A DNA stretch of 64,000 bases from Escherichia coli (lineage in GTDB: Bacteria; Pseudomonadota; Gammaproteobacteria; Enterobacterales; Enterobacteriaceae). A program made the position numbers and the translations under genes. The notes beneath the pieces are model-generated. The model searched no databases. It saw only the letters and a program-made list of their open reading frames with translations, and was not told the origin of the DNA. The stretch is taken from NCBI RefSeq assembly GCF_030013595.1, contig NZ_CP122770.1. One strand, written 5' to 3'. This document shows, piece by piece, positions 22,202 through 27,185 of the stretch. The first letter of the stretch is position 1, and each line of letters begins with the position of its first letter.

Positions 22202-22393
22202 TCACCTGTTTCTGCTGCCCTGTAAGATGTAGTGACCGCCCAGGAAAACCGCCTGCTGATTCGCCACAAAATCGCAGATTTCATCAACAATCTGCGCGGT
22301 GGTGAGCGGTTTCTGCCCCATTTCACGACGCCGCGCATTAATCACGGCCCTGTAATTACGCAGAATTTCGCGGGTTTCTGTGCTGATATTCAT
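22202..22393 (-). CDS. Small hypothetical protein, 4-nt overlap with upstream ORF
   Basis: 63-aa ORF; ATGA overlap with 22390..22812. Confidence 0.3.
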   Translation of the reverse strand: MNISTETREILRNYRAVINARRREMGQKPLTTAQIVDEICDFVANQQAVFLGGHYILQGSRNR

Positions 22394-22812
22394 GACATCG
22401 TCTCCCCGTCCAGCGCCTGTAACACAACGTCCATTGCTTCGCGTTCCTCCCTGACGAATGCGTCACCGTCGCCCCCGTTCTCACTCCCGACGGCATACAG
22501 GCGCTTCATTTCACTGCCTGCCAGCGCCATCACTTTTTCCAGCATCACCGCCGGGACTGTCACATGACGGCTGGCGCGCTTTTCTTCCATCAGTTCACGA
22601 ACAACGTCGTGAACAACGCTGACATCCGCACCATGCTCAAAGGCATCGTCCAGCCGCTGCATGACGGTTTCCAGCTCATCGTCTGTCAGACTCCAGTCCT
22701 GGGCTATGTGACGCACATCCCCACGGGTCAGCACCACGGCAAAAACGCATTCACTGTCCGGCACGTCTGTATCCAGCACTTCGCGGATAATTTCTTTAAC
22801 AGTACAGTACAT
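22390..22812 (-). CDS. Leading-region protein of unknown function (DUF1380-like), paralogue of 24522..24956
   Basis: 140 aa; shares MY-T...RE and SLTDDELETVMQRLDD-type motif with paralogue. Confidence 0.5.
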   Translation of the reverse strand: MYCTVKEIIREVLDTDVPDSECVFAVVLTRGDVRHIAQDWSLTDDELETVMQRLDDAFEHGADVSVVHDVVRELMEEKRASRHVTVPAVMLEKVMALAGSEMKRLYAVGSENGGDGDAFVREEREAMDVVLQALDGETMS

Positions 22813-22858
22813 GTTCTCGTCTCCTTTACAGGGGCGGCATTGCCGCCCCGTCCGTTAA

Positions 22859-23284
22859 TCAGTCCAGAGCCGCGTAAATCGCGTTGCATTCGGGGTGAAA
22901 TTCGATGTGACGCCACAACTGCGCATCGCGCATCCGGTAAAGCTGGGTCAGTCCTGCATCCCCGCTGTCGTGGTACAGCCACAACTGGCGGTTAATCACA
23001 AGGGAGGTAAGGATGATGCCTGCGGCATCAGCACTCACGGTACGGTCAAACCAGTTTGCACCGTTCACCATGTGGAAACGGTCGCCATCCGGCATCATGT
23101 AACCGCCACCGTCCGGCAGGCGGATGAAGTGCCAGAAGCCTCCCTGATATTCCGGCATCATTTTTTGCGCCAGCGCGTACACATACGCCTCGGCATACAG
23201 AAAATCGTTGCCAAACAGATACGGCAGAAAGGAGAGACGGTCGCACTCTTCAACATTCAGAGTGACAGGTTTCGCATATTGCAT
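22859..23284 (-). CDS. klcA: ArdB/KlcA-family antirestriction protein
   Basis: 141 aa with [29 protein letters not shown] matching remembered KlcA. Confidence 0.75.
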
Positions 23285-23299
23285 GATGTTTTCCTCCGT

Positions 23300-23660
23300 T
23301 GTTCACATATTCCGCGACACCGGGCGGTGCCGTGCCTCCATAAAAGCCGGGCGAACAGGCGGGGATGCAGGGGCGCAAGGGAAGCCGCAGCCTGACGCAC
23401 ACGGCTGACGGGAGTTGCAGGGTGAGACCGCGAAATCTGAGCGGGTGAACGACCGGAAAATCACGGCAGACGGGAAGGAGGGACCGGGTGACCGCAGCGG
23501 CGCAGCGTACCCTTGCATCAACGCCAGCCCGGCTAAGATGGAGGCACGGCACAGCCCGCACACGACGCTGAGGCCACATAACTGAAAAACCACAAGGCCA
23601 TGCCCCGCATGGCCGGGTAAAGCGGAGCCGGCGGCGACTTCCTTTGTGCTCTGTCCGGGG
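23300..23660. repeat. GC-rich hairpin repeat family 2, copy b (5' of klcA-like gene)
   Basis: Near-identical to 13310-13655. Confidence 0.6.
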
Positions 23661-23700
23661 ACCGGCAGGAAAAAGGCGGGGATTTACCCCGCCAGTGTCA

Positions 23701-24471: not shown

Positions 24472-24521
24472 GATTAAGCGTTCTCCCTGTATCGCCGCCC
24501 GCAGGGCAGGCGGCGATAACA

Positions 24522-24956
24522 TCAGTTGTTTTCGTGTGTGTTGTTTTTCAGCAGGGTGCGGGCCTGATTAATCACTGCCTGACGGCGGGTAACACATTCC
24601 GGGACGGCAAGGCCGTTATCACGGGCGGCCCATTCACGTTTCCACAGTGCCTGTTCAGCGGTCTGAATCAGGGACGCCAGCAGTTCAGCAGAGACGGTCA
24701 CCAGGCGGTTTTCGCTCACGTTGCTGATAATCTCCATCGCAGCGGCGGAAGAAATACCGGACTCCATCCGCTGGTCTTCCGGGATGTCCTCCAGGTGCGC
24801 CAGGACAGTCCTGATTTCATGATCGGTCAGAGAAATTTCCATACCGTCGGCCAGTGCCTGAATCTCTTCCGGGGACCAGATAAGCAGCATCAGCGGCGTG
24901 TTTCCCGGATACTTTGCTGCCAGCTCACGGCAGAGCGTTTCGCATGTTCCGTACAT
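24522..24956 (-). CDS. DUF1380-like protein, paralogue of 22390..22812
   Basis: 144 aa; conserved [16 protein letters not shown] motif. Confidence 0.5.
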
Positions 24957-24968
24957 TTCGTCTCCTCC

Positions 24969-25190
24969 TTAATCTTTGAAGCACGCATCCAGTTCAAGAA
25001 TTTCGGTATATGCCTCCATCAGGAGGCGGTTTGCGCGAAACAACGTCTGACGCACCAGACGTTCCGGCAGGGTGTCAGCATTAAAGCTGTACCGCCGCTC
25101 CATCTCATTCATGGTTGTACGCAGGTCGCACATGGCATTGGCCACCTCCGCCACTTCGGCGCGAAGTTTTTCGTGTCCGGCATAGTTCAT
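24969..25190 (-). CDS. Small hypothetical protein
   Basis: 73-aa ORF abutting methyltransferase gene. Confidence 0.35.
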   Translation of the reverse strand: MNYAGHEKLRAEVAEVANAMCDLRTTMNEMERRYSFNADTLPERLVRQTLFRANRLLMEAYTEILELDACFKD

Positions 25191-25874
25191 TTACGCAGCC
25201 TCCGGCATAAACCAGTCATCATTCGCGGCCCCCTGCTGCATGGCCCGTTGTACGGCAGCCAGTCGTTGCTGTCCGGCACGGTGATACTGCTCAAGCAGCT
25301 CGATACCGATATACCGGCGTCCGGACTGGAGGGCGGCAACGCAGGTTGAGCCGCTGCCTGCAAACGGGTCCAGCACAATTGCGTTCGGGTGTGTGAAGCT
25401 CTCAATCAGCGGTTGCAGGCTGGTAACAGGCTTTTCCGTCGGGTGATGATGATTGCCTGAATATTTCCAGCCCAGCACGTCCGGCAGCGGTTTTTGTGGC
25501 AGACGTGGACGGCCTTTTGCCAGGATGTAGGCGCATTCGTGGCGATAGCCCACATATGCGGCCTTCGATGTGTAGTTTTTGGTGAAGACCAGGTGACCAA
25601 CAACGCTGAATCCCGCATTTTTCCAGGCGGCCATAAAGCGATCGACGCGGTTCCAGCCGTAGAAGCTCACCATTAACGCGTCTTTTTTCAGCACGCGGAA
25701 CATTTCATTACAGGCCGGTTGCAGCCACTCATCGGTTTTATCGCCGGCGATGGTGCGCCCGGAACGGTCACGGAAACCGACGAGATATGGAGGGTCGGTG
25801 AGGATGAAATCAATGGCGTTATCAGGAATACGGGCCATAACATCGATGCAGTTACCGAGGACAAAACGGGACAT
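25191..25874 (-). CDS. Orphan DNA methyltransferase (N6-adenine/N4-cytosine, DPPY motif)
   Basis: 227 aa with ILTDPPYL and FAGSGST motifs; no restriction partner nearby. Confidence 0.8.
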   Translation of the reverse strand: MSRFVLGNCIDVMARIPDNAIDFILTDPPYLVGFRDRSGRTIAGDKTDEWLQPACNEMFRVLKKDALMVSFYGWNRVDRFMAAWKNAGFSVVGHLVFTKNYTSKAAYVGYRHECAYILAKGRPRLPQKPLPDVLGWKYSGNHHHPTEKPVTSLQPLIESFTHPNAIVLDPFAGSGSTCVAALQSGRRYIGIELLEQYHRAGQQRLAAVQRAMQQGAANDDWFMPEAA

Positions 25875-26258
25875 ACGAAACTCCTTCTCTTACAGAGGGC
25901 ACCGGGAGGGCACCCCTGTGGTGCCCGTTCCCCGCTGCCTGTGGGCTGTTCACCGCGTCCGGTAACGGGTCAGGCCGACCGTGGAATATCGCAGCCGTCG
26001 TCTTTTTGACGGCGAGAATATGCCGCGAAAGCGGCTTGAAGGGCGTTCATCAGAAAAGGGCGACGGGCTGGCGTACACTGTCACCGATGCCAGCCGGGAG
26101 CGGTAAAAGCGCCCGTCCCGTGCCCGGCCGGACGCGGGACACTGACCACAGGCAGCGTTTATGCCGCGCCGCGTCAGCCGGCGCAGTAAAAAGAGGAGCA
26201 CGGCGACATCCTTTGTCGGAAAAGAAACGGGCGGTTTCCCGCCCGTCTCCGTCATACT

Positions 26259-27185
26259 TCATCCGCCATAATGCGCCACATTGTCGACTATCCACGCAGG
26301 TCCGGTGACTTCCGGCAGCTCATCGTCATCTGTCGGGGAAGACCATTCCAGTTCCCCCCACAGCACATCAACGAGCTCTCCGCGCTCATACAACTGCCAG
26401 CCACAGAAATCACAGCCCTGTTCGGCATACCAGTGCTCCAGCGTGCAGCTGAAACGGCGGCTTAATTCTGCAATAACGTCGCTTTCCGGCTGACACCACG
26501 GCGTGTCGAAATCCACCTGAATGAAGTTGTCTCCCTGACTACTGATATTCACCTCATACCCCACAGGCCACTTCACGCCATACTGTTCCGTATACCAGTG
26601 ATATGCAGAAGGAACACCGTTCAGAACACCACCGTTAAAGCCATTCACTTCAACATCCAGGCGGGTGGGCAGAACCGTCAGCAGGTCAAACGGCATGGTT
26701 TTTTCCGGCAGTACGTTGTCACACAGACGGTTCCACCACACCGATACATCCTCGTTACTCCAGAAGCCACACCAGTCACCTCTTTTTGCGGTGAAAAGTG
26801 CGGTGATGGTATCCCTGACATCGTCCGGTAATCCTTCCCAGCGACACTGTCCAGTACCGCTCTGCAGCCAGAGTTTATGCAGCATCAGGCAGTTTTGCTC
26901 ATCCAGCAGTACACCGTCCTGCAGGTATGTCAGCCAGCGGGTGAACGCGATATTCTCCGGCGATACAACGCCACGCCCGGCAGCCGTCAGTCCGGGGCAT
27001 GGTTCAAACCGCACATCTTCAGTGGTCTGCAGAAGTCCGGCACTTCCGGCCAGAAACAGCTGAATACCTTCATTTGTGGCGCGGCGATAAAGCGGTGTGA
27101 CTGCACCGCTGGCCAGTCGTTTAATCTCAGCAATCTGTGCCGGTTCACCAGAAAAATGCATACGATTTGAGCACCAGTTTGGCAT
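26259..27185 (-). CDS. Conserved hypothetical leading-region protein (308 aa, Trp/Cys-rich)
   Basis: ATG at 27185 with GAGGAG RBS (MPNWCSNRMHFSG...). Confidence 0.5.
   Translation of the reverse strand: MPNWCSNRMHFSGEPAQIAEIKRLASGAVTPLYRRATNEGIQLFLAGSAGLLQTTEDVRFEPCPGLTAAGRGVVSPENIAFTRWLTYLQDGVLLDEQNCLMLHKLWLQSGTGQCRWEGLPDDVRDTITALFTAKRGDWCGFWSNEDVSVWWNRLCDNVLPEKTMPFDLLTVLPTRLDVEVNGFNGGVLNGVPSAYHWYTEQYGVKWPVGYEVNISSQGDNFIQVDFDTPWCQPESDVIAELSRRFSCTLEHWYAEQGCDFCGWQLYERGELVDVLWGELEWSSPTDDDELPEVTGPAWIVDNVAHYGG

Follow-up and report, generated by a model that had tools for sequence, protein, structure and literature searches.

A conserved leading-region block of an IncI1-type Escherichia coli plasmid, with anti-restriction genes and putative single-stranded DNA promoters

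What do eight genes, six of them uncharacterised, contribute far behind the transfer origin of an Escherichia coli plasmid, and what drives their expression? The block lies at 22202-27185 of the window, by which we mean the whole 64,000-nucleotide stretch of DNA that was analysed. Within the window, nikAB and oriT span 4.6-7.9 kb, with oriT itself at about 7.7-7.9 kb, and the block follows 14-19.5 kb behind oriT, flanked by ssb on one side and impCAB on the other; the interval between oriT and the block holds ardA, psiAB and ssb, encoded on the strand that also carries the block's genes. The position of oriT, together with impCAB after the block in this IncI1-type plasmid, agrees with a preliminary description that had placed the block in the distal leading region. 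The ORF lengths and end coordinates given there were correct for all eight genes, each of which is on the minus strand; its title counted five unknown ORFs and was mistaken, whereas its list of six was right. The strand shown as plus would be the transferred strand, entering the recipient 5' to 3' from oriT, and, as all genes are on the minus strand, the entering single strand would be their template. We are highly confident that the block represents the distal, conserved portion of the leading region of IncI1/IncF plasmids.

The closest comparison is pESBL, an IncI1 plasmid of E. coli O104:H4, which carries the same genes, order, orientation and intergenic hairpins (Yamaichi 2015; Fomenkov 2020; Wen 2025). 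Its order is Hp8, M.EcoGIX, Hp9, Hp10, Hp11 (YchA), KlcA/ArdB, Hp12 and Hp13, with class 2 and class 3 promoters. The two are colinear, with 96% DNA identity over 7.5 kb and proteins 89-100% identical, the most diverged being the DUF1380a protein (88.9%). Unlike pESBL, the present copy has a group II intron at 19662-22004, just past orf63, and a TnpB element near ardA. F holds the entire block: the methylase is called YfeA there and the ArdB homologue YfgB, the class 3 and class 2 promoters are ssp3 and ssp2, and the DUF1281 DNA and its upstream hairpin are found as well. Proteins are 92-98% identical to those of F except for orf73 (76.7%), and the class 3 and class 2 regions are 97% and 95% identical, although the F backbone is MOBF/MPF_F and that of the present plasmid MOBP/MPF_I. 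The block was found in at least 5000 plasmid records. It is already known as an early-entry leading segment common to IncI1 and F-type conjugative plasmids, and earlier experiments have characterised the M.EcoGIX-type methyltransferase, ArdB/KlcA and the two promoter classes.

The gene at 25191-25874 encodes an orphan beta-class N6-adenine DNA methyltransferase of 227 aa, belonging to the M.EcoGIX / R64 YfbB / F YfeA family. It matches NCBIfam NF010253 over its full length (498 bits, cut-off 244) and Pfam N6_N4_Mtase PF01555 (E 3.6e-37), retains motif IV (DPPY) and motif I (FAGSGS; FAGSG) intact, and is 94.3% identical to M.EcoGIX of pESBL and 93.8% to the F protein. No restriction endonuclease gene was found in the block or its flanks, so that the earlier reading of a DPPY methyltransferase lacking a restriction partner stands, and the same orphan arrangement recurs in thousands of plasmids. 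Published work describes M.EcoGIX as a single-strand m6A methylase by which the entering strand is protected; the enzyme is specific for ssDNA, its protection depends on oriT orientation, it is active when cloned by itself and it works with DNA polymerase I. A deletion mutant transfers into restriction-modification-bearing recipients up to 1000-fold less than wild-type pESBL. Enzymes of this type have a functional analogue in DpnA of the Streptococcus pneumoniae DpnII system, a competence adenine methylase that is made on DNA entry and modifies incoming single strands so that the new duplex escapes restriction. DpnA, however, sits within a full restriction-modification locus, has GATC specificity and serves transformation, whereas the M.EcoGIX type is orphan, promiscuous in its specificity (SAY) and used in conjugation. 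The solved relatives include PDB chains that bear the name DpnA (E about 1e-11).

Directly downstream, orf73 (24969-25190; pESBL Hp9; PHROG 4830, E 3.3e-34) has an ATG that abuts the methyltransferase stop codon (TAA|ATG). It immediately follows the methyltransferase gene in 23 related loci, from 14 named Enterobacterales species and mis-binned contigs, and the order methyltransferase-orf73-DUF1380 is retained in 22 related loci from other Enterobacterales genomes. The second anti-restriction gene, at 22859-23284, encodes a protein of 141 aa that matches Antirestrict PF03230 over its full length (E 6.7e-25) and is 100% identical to pESBL KlcA/ArdB and 97.9% to F YfgB, which has been identified with ArdB; a KlcA/ArdB-like protein had been proposed here, correctly. 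The PF03230 domain is shared in full with KlcA of RP4/pBP136 (PDB 2KMG, E 1.8e-18), where RP4 KlcA is only distant sequence kin, and with ArdB of R64 (PDB 2WJ9 homologue, E 3e-7). KlcA/ArdB proteins have anti-restriction activity against type I systems, and the F, R64 and pESBL relatives, at 93-100% identity, suggest that the block's protein has it too.

For the other six ORFs, the profile and fold searches that had been proposed as a check gave no function. Synteny and coding constraint nevertheless show that orf63, the two DUF1380 genes, YchA/YubG, orf73 and the DUF1281 gene are real genes. Both orf73 and the basic orf63 (22202-22393; pESBL Hp13), whose start overlaps the DUF1380b stop (ATGA) and which is 54-65% identical across species, show an excess of third-codon-position substitutions and no stop codons. 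DUF1380a (144 aa, 24522-24956; pESBL Hp10; DUF1380 E 4.4e-48) is all-alpha and acidic. DUF1380b (140 aa, 22390-22812; pESBL Hp12) is very acidic (pI 4.4, net -17) and a divergent paralogue with a weak DUF1380 match (E 0.014). The two had been described as paralogues, and by sequence they are distant DUF1380 paralogues: BLASTP aligns them over 120 residues at 24% identity (E 1e-6), both match PHROG 9024 (3.1e-5 for the 140-aa and 1.3e-69 for the 144-aa protein) and each can be aligned along its whole length with 20 further members of DUF1380. Fold searches returned no functional relative for DUF1380 or for YchA (256 aa, 23701-24471; pESBL Hp11; YchA / YubG / 'NgrC' family), which has two alpha/beta sandwich halves linked by a long helix. 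The longest YchA ORF extends to 24522 (273 aa), whereas Met18 is where the PHROG profile and the homologues begin. The Api92-like protein at 26259-27185 (308 aa; pESBL Hp8, 94.8% identical) carries DUF1281 and DUF1281_C (Pfam E 7.3e-49 and 9.9e-15) and is acidic (pI 4.4, net -24); its longest ORF starts with a GTG and runs to 323 aa, whereas the PHROG profile starts at Met16. Residues 18-289 match PDB 2IJR, the Api92 protein of Yersinia pseudotuberculosis (listed as 'hypothetical protein api92'), at E 7.3e-52, and both Pfam domains are present. As Api92 is a structural-genomics entry with no assigned function, the match does not explain the DUF1281 gene.

The minus strand of 22000-27700 showed no sigma-70 promoter of the duplex type, and the intergenic regions fold into long hairpins on the plus strand. 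The GC-rich intergenic 25875-26258 (61% G+C) had been proposed as a structured promoter element; it proves to be the published class 3 ssDNA promoter, 96% identical to the pESBL DNA upstream of M.EcoGIX in which a start site was mapped by 5' RACE (Wen et al. 2025). As ssDNA it folds at -109.9 kcal/mol (z -6.8 vs shuffles). The hairpin itself spans 25933-26157, its outer stem pairing 25933-25969 with 26117-26157 and its inner branches occupying 25970-26039 and 26041-26114. In the alignment 98.2% of cells are paired and 15 pairs have changed on both sides, compared with 1-3 double-changed pairs in slid controls and 0/500 shuffles, and the plus strand folds better than the minus strand in 9/10 homologues. 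We tentatively place the -10 at 26138-26143, (G/C)ACACT, with A-11 and T-7 unpaired; no convincing -35 could be assigned to this hairpin. Between its stem and the methyltransferase start codon lies a small conserved plus-strand hairpin, 25905-25931 (helix 2 of alignment A3), probably in the 5' UTR, with 10 pairs, 100% paired, 3 of which carry compensatory changes.

The class 2 hairpin (ssp2 of F) occupies 23321-23558 within intergenic 23285-23700 and is 94-96% identical to a copy upstream of ardA at 13303-13656 (repeat families D2/D6, local BLAST). It has a -35-like TTGCAT (23513-23518) and a -10-like TAAGAT (23534-23539) whose centre lies in an internal loop. Its fold has z -4.55, the consensus hairpin shows 8 compensatory pairs, and the plus strand folds 8-11 kcal/mol better than the minus strand; covariation thus independently supports the class 2 and class 3 hairpins. 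Published work gives class 2/ssp2 both promoter and replication roadblock activity, the roadblock being resolved by UvrD. Neither this intergenic region nor the hairpin upstream of the 308-aa gene had been singled out in the preliminary description. That third hairpin, 27216-27380 (plus strand; ssDNA fold z -4.3), carries on its 3' arm the class-2 core TTGCAT (27340-27345), 15 nt and TAACGT (27361-27366). The shared core, TTGCAT-15 nt-TAnnnT, occurs 3 times in the 64 kb, always on the plus strand, with 0 expected. The 3' arm (27307-27377) aligns with that of class 2 (23482-23550) at a score of 43, where shuffles reach 19.3 +/- 2.8 (maximum 32). Of 4380 matching plasmid records, 4363 carry the element at 95% identity or more, and the F copy is 98.6% identical. 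Based on this, we propose it as a candidate seventh ssDNA promoter. In pESBL, transconjugant RNA-seq and 5' RACE identified six such promoters, among them the ones that precede klcA and M.EcoGIX, and their induction fades as the DNA turns double-stranded (Wen et al. 2025). Only six operons were reported as induced there, and Hp8 is not named among them, which argues against strong activity of the third hairpin.

Could the GC-rich intergenics function in duplex DNA, as conventional promoters and terminators, or serve purely as sites (ssi) that prime complementary-strand synthesis? Priming of DNA synthesis is a property of Frpo-type elements, ssp2 affects replication, and terminator-like hairpins stand at the edges of both regions. 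Yet the coding strand lacks a sigma-70 consensus, hairpins of 160-240 nt carry compensatory changes, and published start sites fall inside the near-identical pESBL elements only in fresh transconjugants; the preference for the transferred strand is G:T-dependent. We therefore consider this explanation very unlikely. Still less probable, to the point of being barely credible, is that the methyltransferase is a remnant without activity, or that it belongs to a restriction-modification system as its modification component: its best PADLOC models are type II methyltransferases, but its intact DPPY and FAGSGS, full-length NF010253 match and 94% identity to an enzyme of demonstrated activity all speak against decay, and the missing endonuclease gene and widespread orphan arrangement against a partner.

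Two kinds of role may be considered for the uncharacterised genes. One or more may be a new anti-defence effector, each DUF1380 paralogue serving or extending the anti-restriction gene that precedes it. Zygotically induced promoters transcribe them together with known anti-restriction genes, a gene of that kind lies upstream of each DUF1380 copy, and the methyltransferase-orf73-DUF1380 trio persists where YchA and klcA are lost. Moreover, both DUF1380 proteins and the DUF1281 protein match the DNA mimic ArdA in acidity, and anti-defence genes are over-represented in leading regions (Samuel et al. 2024). Against this, there was no sequence or fold match to known anti-defence proteins beyond one weak partial match, cloned M.EcoGIX is active alone, and Tn-seq gave no transfer phenotype in K-12, which is weak evidence as that recipient has few defences. 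Our computations neither support nor refute this role, which is a plausible guess that we hold as possible but doubtful. An equally speculative proposal, which we rate no higher, is that the genes aid establishment otherwise, through single-strand handling, control of complementary-strand synthesis or SOS/host reprogramming, with no immune blocking. Such roles are known for the leading-region proteins Ssb and PsiB, the conserved leading-region protein YfjB is reported to reprogram the host (PMC13370423), and tightly coupled orf73 could tune the interaction of the methylase with DNA polymerase I; profile and domain searches, however, found no evidence of a DNA-binding or enzymatic domain.

Taken together, the block is very probably a conserved leading-region segment, and its anatomy can be read as three transcription units, each headed by a hairpin. 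In unit A, the hairpin at 27216-27380, which we take to be a compact class-2-type element, would drive the DUF1281 gene up to an intrinsic-terminator-like minus-strand hairpin just past its stop codon (26218-26246; read from the sequence as ACGGGCGG-GAAA-CCGCCCGT then TTCTTTTCC), which is helix 14 of A3 and is retained in diverged homologues. Unit B would run from the class 3 hairpin through the methyltransferase, orf73, DUF1380a and YchA to a similar minus-strand hairpin that closes the operon (23675-23693; GGCGGGG-TAAAT-CCCCGCC then TTTTTCC), and unit C from the class 2 hairpin through klcA/ardB, DUF1380b and orf63. The principle is that of Frpo and ssi1-3 (class 1; Masai & Arai 1997; Bates et al. 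1999), in which a long imperfect hairpin of the transferred strand rebuilds a promoter that complementary-strand synthesis then silences. Three class 1 copies lie in the window (9210-9538, 12116-12634 and 19158-19676), and no sequence similarity to the block hairpins was detectable, so these may work like Frpo from outside its sequence family. By extension from plasmids 94-100% identical in the relevant parts, the promoter activity of the B and C hairpins would be confined to the single-stranded state, as in pESBL and F, and the genes would be expressed in a burst minutes after entry; the -10 hexamers, lying over internal loops, would be pre-melted. The methyltransferase would place m6A at SAY sites on the entering strand, as shown for the near-identical plasmids pESBL and F, so that the duplex formed from it resists type II enzymes, and KlcA/ArdB would counter type I restriction. 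The class 2 hairpin would stall complementary-strand synthesis until cleared by UvrD, thereby prolonging the burst. The six uncharacterised proteins may be co-expressed establishment effectors. Most are small and acidic, and none gave a match to a domain or fold with catalytic function, so their most likely mode of action is binding to host proteins, not enzymatic catalysis. Since in pESBL Tn-seq neither maintenance nor transfer to E. coli K-12 required any of the eight genes, any role of the uncharacterised ones would be conditional. To this known segment our analysis adds the third hairpin, upstream of the DUF1281 gene, and the observation that, in other Enterobacterales, hairpins of different classes precede the methylase operon.

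All eight minus-strand genes of the preliminary description were recovered between positions 22202 and 27185. The ORF inventory comprises orf63 (22202-22393), DUF1380b (140 aa, 22390-22812), a KlcA/ArdB homologue (141 aa, 22859-23284), YchA (256 aa, 23701-24471), DUF1380a (144 aa, 24522-24956), orf73 (24969-25190), a methyltransferase (MTase, 227 aa, 25191-25874) and a DUF1281 protein (308 aa, 26259-27185). For two of these the longest ORF exceeds the preferred reading: that of YchA is 273 aa, with Met18 favoured by the profile and by homologue starts, and that of the DUF1281 protein is 323 aa, with the PHROG profile beginning at Met16. 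The alternative YchA ATG overlaps the DUF1380a stop codon (TGATG) and gives the 273-aa form, a GC hairpin (GCCGCC...GGCGGC, 24471-24522) lies between this stop and the preferred YchA start, and some database entries contain DUF1380-YchA fusions of 375-418 aa. Judged by their substitution patterns, orf63 and orf73 are genuine genes, as their lengths are kept across species with no stop codons and with third codon positions substituted about twice as often as either of the other two.

The E. coli O104:H4 plasmid pESBL-EA11 (hereafter pESBL) is colinear with the window, with 96% identity over 22005-29478, and mapping via pESBL places nikAB/oriT at 4.6-7.9 kb. The stretch from oriT to the block carries ardA, psiAB, a parB-like gene and ssb, likewise as minus-strand genes. 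Based on gene order and oriT position relative to pESBL, the block is the distal leading region, as had been proposed, 14-19.5 kb behind oriT; the plus strand is transferred and is the template from which all eight genes are transcribed. A 5.4-kb block query found at least 5000 matching plasmid records from Escherichia, Klebsiella, Salmonella and Shigella, 3915 of them with at least 80% coverage, and the closest matches are IncI-type conjugative plasmids (MOBP, MPF_I). The F plasmid carries the same block, with proteins 92-98% identical (76.7% for orf73). Copies also occur in records labelled Collinsella, Oscillibacter, Oscillospiraceae and Streptomyces morookaense (L005, L006, L013, L025, L026 and L030 among the related loci fetched from other genomes); these labels most likely reflect binning error or contamination rather than real hosts.

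Two elements distinguish this leading region from that of pESBL. A group II intron occupies 19662-22004 on the plus strand (Rfam RF02012 at 19706-19855; domain V-VI, RF00029, at 21928-22004), with a 555-aa RT/maturase/HNH ORF at 20256-21923. The intron runs antisense to the leading genes, its strand being the transferred one. Comparison with pESBL, which lacks it, shows a clean insertion with the ssi3 class 1 promoter of the ssb operon on one side and the end of the klcA operon on the other. The segment 13707-15032, between the class 2 hairpin of ardA and psiA, contains a minus-strand ORF (13743-14924) for a 393-aa TnpB, an IS200/IS605-family RNA-guided endonuclease (NF040570, E 1.7e-101); pESBL has no counterpart of this segment, and a 198-aa hypothetical gene stands in its place.

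The methyltransferase matches NCBIfam NF010253 (PRK13699) at 498.2 bits against a curated cut-off of 244, with residues 1-227 aligned to profile positions 1-226, and Pfam PF01555 (N6_N4_Mtase) at E 3.6e-37. In its translation the catalytic DPPY motif and the AdoMet-binding FxGxG motif are both whole and in beta-class order (TDPPY at residues 26-30, DPFAGSGST near residue 170). It is 94.3% identical (214/227) to M.EcoGIX of pESBL and 93.8% identical to the F protein, and its gene lies in the leading region with its template on the transferred strand and a class 3 hairpin directly upstream. By these resemblances, it belongs to the M.EcoGIX type of plasmid ssDNA adenine methyltransferases. No endonuclease gene was found beside it, every neighbour being accounted for and none a nuclease, or in the related loci, where the gene that follows is orf73. 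Membership of a type II restriction-modification system was rejected on this ground, and the view of the enzyme as an orphan holds. In experiments with pESBL, M.EcoGIX methylates single-stranded DNA, placing m6A at SAY sites, and it associates with DNA polymerase I. The enzyme shields the plasmid from restriction only with oriT in its native orientation, and its deletion lowers transfer into EcoGIII or EcoRI recipients up to 1000-fold below wild type. By analogy, the enzyme encoded here is predicted to make m6A at SAY and to protect the plasmid on entry.

The KlcA/ArdB-like assignment was likewise borne out: the protein matches PF03230 (Antirestrict; E 6.7e-25, model positions 2-92 of 92), PHROG 10132 'anti-restriction protein' (E 9.2e-20) and the PDB entries 2KMG (E 1.8e-18, residues 5-141) and 2WJ9 (E 3e-7). 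It is identical to the pESBL protein and 97.9% identical to F YfgB, which a 2026 preprint equates with R64 ArdB, an inhibitor of restriction. This protein may therefore inhibit type I restriction, an activity that R64 ArdB is reported to have and that is implied for F YfgB.

The eight genes form three transcription units. Terminator-like hairpins follow the stop codons of YchA and DUF1281, the stop codon of one gene touches or overlaps the start of the next at MTase/orf73 and DUF1380b/orf63, no sigma-70 duplex promoter was found on the minus strand throughout the block, and structured intergenic regions precede the units. In pESBL, six operons are induced up to ~500-fold within 15 min of entry, with start sites inside hairpins upstream of all six, assigned to class 1 (ssi1-3/Frpo), class 2 (ardA, klcA) and class 3 (M.EcoGIX) (Wen et al. 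2025). The hairpins of the block are not members of the Frpo/ssi1-3 class 1 sequence family, as sensitive local BLAST found no similarity between 23285-23700, 25875-26258 or 27231-27520 and the three class 1 copies in the window. Those copies lie at 9210-9538, 12116-12634 and 19158-19676, with mutual identities of 80-92%, and the segment 19150-19700 holding the third has an ssDNA fold z of -11.5. Rfam searches of 17-32 kb returned only the group II intron and no RNA family over the intergenic regions.

Upstream of klcA, the repeat at 23292-23644 is 94-96% identical to that upstream of ardA at 13303-13656 (repeat search and local BLAST) and 95% identical to ssp2, the class 2 element of F. The intergenic region (23285-23700) has an ssDNA z of -4.55 and folds into a single long hairpin (23321-23558) in which 8 pairs are compensatory, the plus strand folding 8-11 kcal/mol better than the minus strand. 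Promoter-like hexamers, TTGCAT and after 15 nt TAAGAT, stand on the 3' arm, the non-template one in minus-strand transcription, and an internal loop lies over the middle of the -10. Across 29 copies the T, A and final T of this -10 are invariant while its middle bases vary. The 2026 preprint cited above shows that F ssp2 is also a cis-acting block to complementary-strand synthesis, resolved by UvrD, and its deletion lowers transfer into EcoGIII and EcoKI recipients; the class 2 hairpin here is predicted to act as a replication roadblock in the same way.

The GC-rich segment 25875-26258, upstream of the methyltransferase, had been suggested to be a structured promoter element, and by pESBL/F homology, fold and covariation it corresponds to the class 3 ssDNA promoter. 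It lies within the 96% colinear pESBL alignment, is 97.1% identical to F and reaches 95% identity or more in 4989 of the 5000 best plasmid records. In pESBL, transcription starts inside this hairpin, which is active only in fresh transconjugants (5' RACE, RNA-seq; Wen et al. 2025). The ssDNA folds at -109.9 kcal/mol (z -6.8), and homologues 73-80% identical occur on Erwinia, Citrobacter, Raoultella, Enterobacter and Entomohabitans contigs, with the plus strand folding better than the minus strand in nine of ten. Their consensus has 93 pairs, with 98.2% of cells paired, and 15 compensatory pairs against 1-3 when partners were slid, although these changes represent few independent events because the aligned sequences form essentially two clades; none of 500 shuffles reached the observed values. 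Only one -10 candidate is conserved, (G/C)ACACT (26138-26143), and it is tentative; its A-11 and T-7 do not vary and are unpaired in the consensus. No -35 box was found in the hairpin. Other -35/-10 picks, namely TTGACG in the apical loop, TAAAAG and TATGCC, were dropped as unconserved or badly spaced.

Class 3 is single-copy in the window. Elsewhere it is a dispersed repeat family, since other plasmids hold extra copies (L009 6559-6755, L015 6041-6239, L021 3631-3716 and 6046-6243, L022 6557-6685, L023 7205-7333). In L015 and L021 one of these is directly upstream of the DUF1281 homologue, and some Citrobacter plasmids have a second class 3 copy before theirs. Short CDSs are annotated inside the hairpin in L001 (12951-13187 and 13088-13309), pESBL (54394-54705) and F (53784-54089; approximately window 25950-26260), mostly as 'hypothetical protein' and in one case as 'arginase'. 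Given the conserved structure, these calls are probably spurious. The conservation of 25875-26258 and of 27186-27400 contrasts with that of the neighbouring proteins, which are up to 11% divergent from their pESBL counterparts.

The hairpin in front of the methylase gene is not of the same class everywhere. In Yersinia pestis, Lelliottia, Salmonella arizonae, Pantoea and others (L008, L012, L014, L019, L020, L027), a hairpin with the class 2 core, not class 3, lies ~230 nt upstream of the MTase start (for example TTGCATTCGCAGCGGCCCGGCTACAGT). A third, unrelated structured element (z -4.8 to -8.2) precedes the methylase operon in Klebsiella, Cedecea and one Enterobacter contig (L007, L010, L011). 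The ssDNA promoter classes thus appear to be interchangeable cassettes. Downstream of the promoter, the order MTase-orf73-DUF1380 is kept in all related loci but two, including loci without YchA and klcA; one exception has no downstream homologue and the other no detectable orf73.

A further hairpin was found upstream of DUF1281, at 27216-27380 (z -4.3). Its 3' arm aligns to the class 2 3' arm with a score of 43, against 19.3 +/- 2.8 for shuffles, and its core reads TTGCAT, 15 nt and TAACGT. The 64-kb window has three matches to TTGCAT-N6-CAGCCCGGYTAANNT, all of them on the plus strand, against none expected by chance. The relaxed core has 26 matches in the related loci, each on the transferred strand, with the -10 T, A and final T again invariant and the middle varying. 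The segment 27186-27400 is at least 95% identical in 4363 of 4380 matching plasmid records, and diverged DUF1281 homologues have a class 3 copy in place of the hairpin. The hairpin at 27216-27380 is a candidate seventh ssDNA promoter, but its activity is doubtful, as only six induced operons are reported for pESBL.

Profile and structure-based annotation of the block succeeded in part: PF03230, PF01555, DUF1380 and DUF1281 were assigned, whereas orf63, orf73 and YchA drew no Pfam match. Both DUF1281 (PF06924) and DUF1281_C (PF18406) were found in the 308-aa protein, which also matches PDB 2IJR (Api92), a structural-genomics entry without assigned function. DUF1380 (PF07128) is matched strongly by DUF1380a (E 4.4e-48) and weakly by DUF1380b (0.014). 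The two share 24% identity (BLASTP, E 1e-6), both match PHROG 9024 (DUF1380b at 3.1e-5), and they align over their full length with 20 family members from a search of 1.84 billion representatives. The 140- and 144-aa proteins are thus true paralogues, as described, although distant ones. Searches of NCBIfam, Pfam and PADLOC gave no match for orf63, orf73 or YchA, the PADLOC matches being confined to the methyltransferase. Sequence and profile searches found no PDB relatives of DUF1380 or YchA, the AFDB50 fold search returned only unannotated family members, and literature searches under older gene names (yubG, ngrC and others) turned up nothing relevant. Profile depth was limited: YchA belongs to a narrow family of 428 clusters, of which the top 120 are at least 82% identical, and 1.84 billion proteins yielded only 148 representatives of DUF1380.

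In pESBL Tn-seq, Hp8 (DUF1281), M.EcoGIX, Hp9-11 (orf73, DUF1380a and YchA), KlcA/ArdB and Hp12-13 (DUF1380b and orf63) were all dispensable for maintenance and for transfer to K-12. DUF1380b, DUF1380a and DUF1281 are acidic, their pI of 4.4-4.8 being not far from that of ArdA (4.1). Our best guess is that the uncharacterised proteins are protein-binding effectors made in the zygotic burst; they might either counter defences or help establishment, neither role being favoured. A bolder reading takes the uncharacterised genes as new anti-defence or establishment effectors fired from ssDNA promoters, with MTase-orf73-DUF1380 as a functional module of three genes, the second DUF1380 serving KlcA/ArdB, and DUF1281 on a seventh, unreported promoter that is a compact relative of class 2. 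Taken together, we regard this combination as rather unlikely. If true, the core TTGyAT-15 nt-TAnnnT would mark out a broader promoter family, exchanged with class 3 before the same operon in other Enterobacterales.

The block itself is already known and is among the best-characterised parts of IncI1/IncF plasmids; its main actors have been characterised, so no new kind of system is added. The observation made from the sequence is confirmed, and its interpretation is essentially right. The hairpin at 27216-27380, the interchange of hairpin classes, the MTase-orf73-DUF1380 order and the tentative class 3 -10 are small additions beyond Wen et al. 2025 and related papers, and residual interest lies in the six orphan genes and the candidate extra promoter. 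For laboratories working with pESBL or F, the third class-2-core hairpin, the hairpin-class interchange and the MTase-orf73-DUF1380 trio are leads that are cheap to test. The block is carried on thousands of resistance plasmids and helps decide their survival in the first minutes in a new host.
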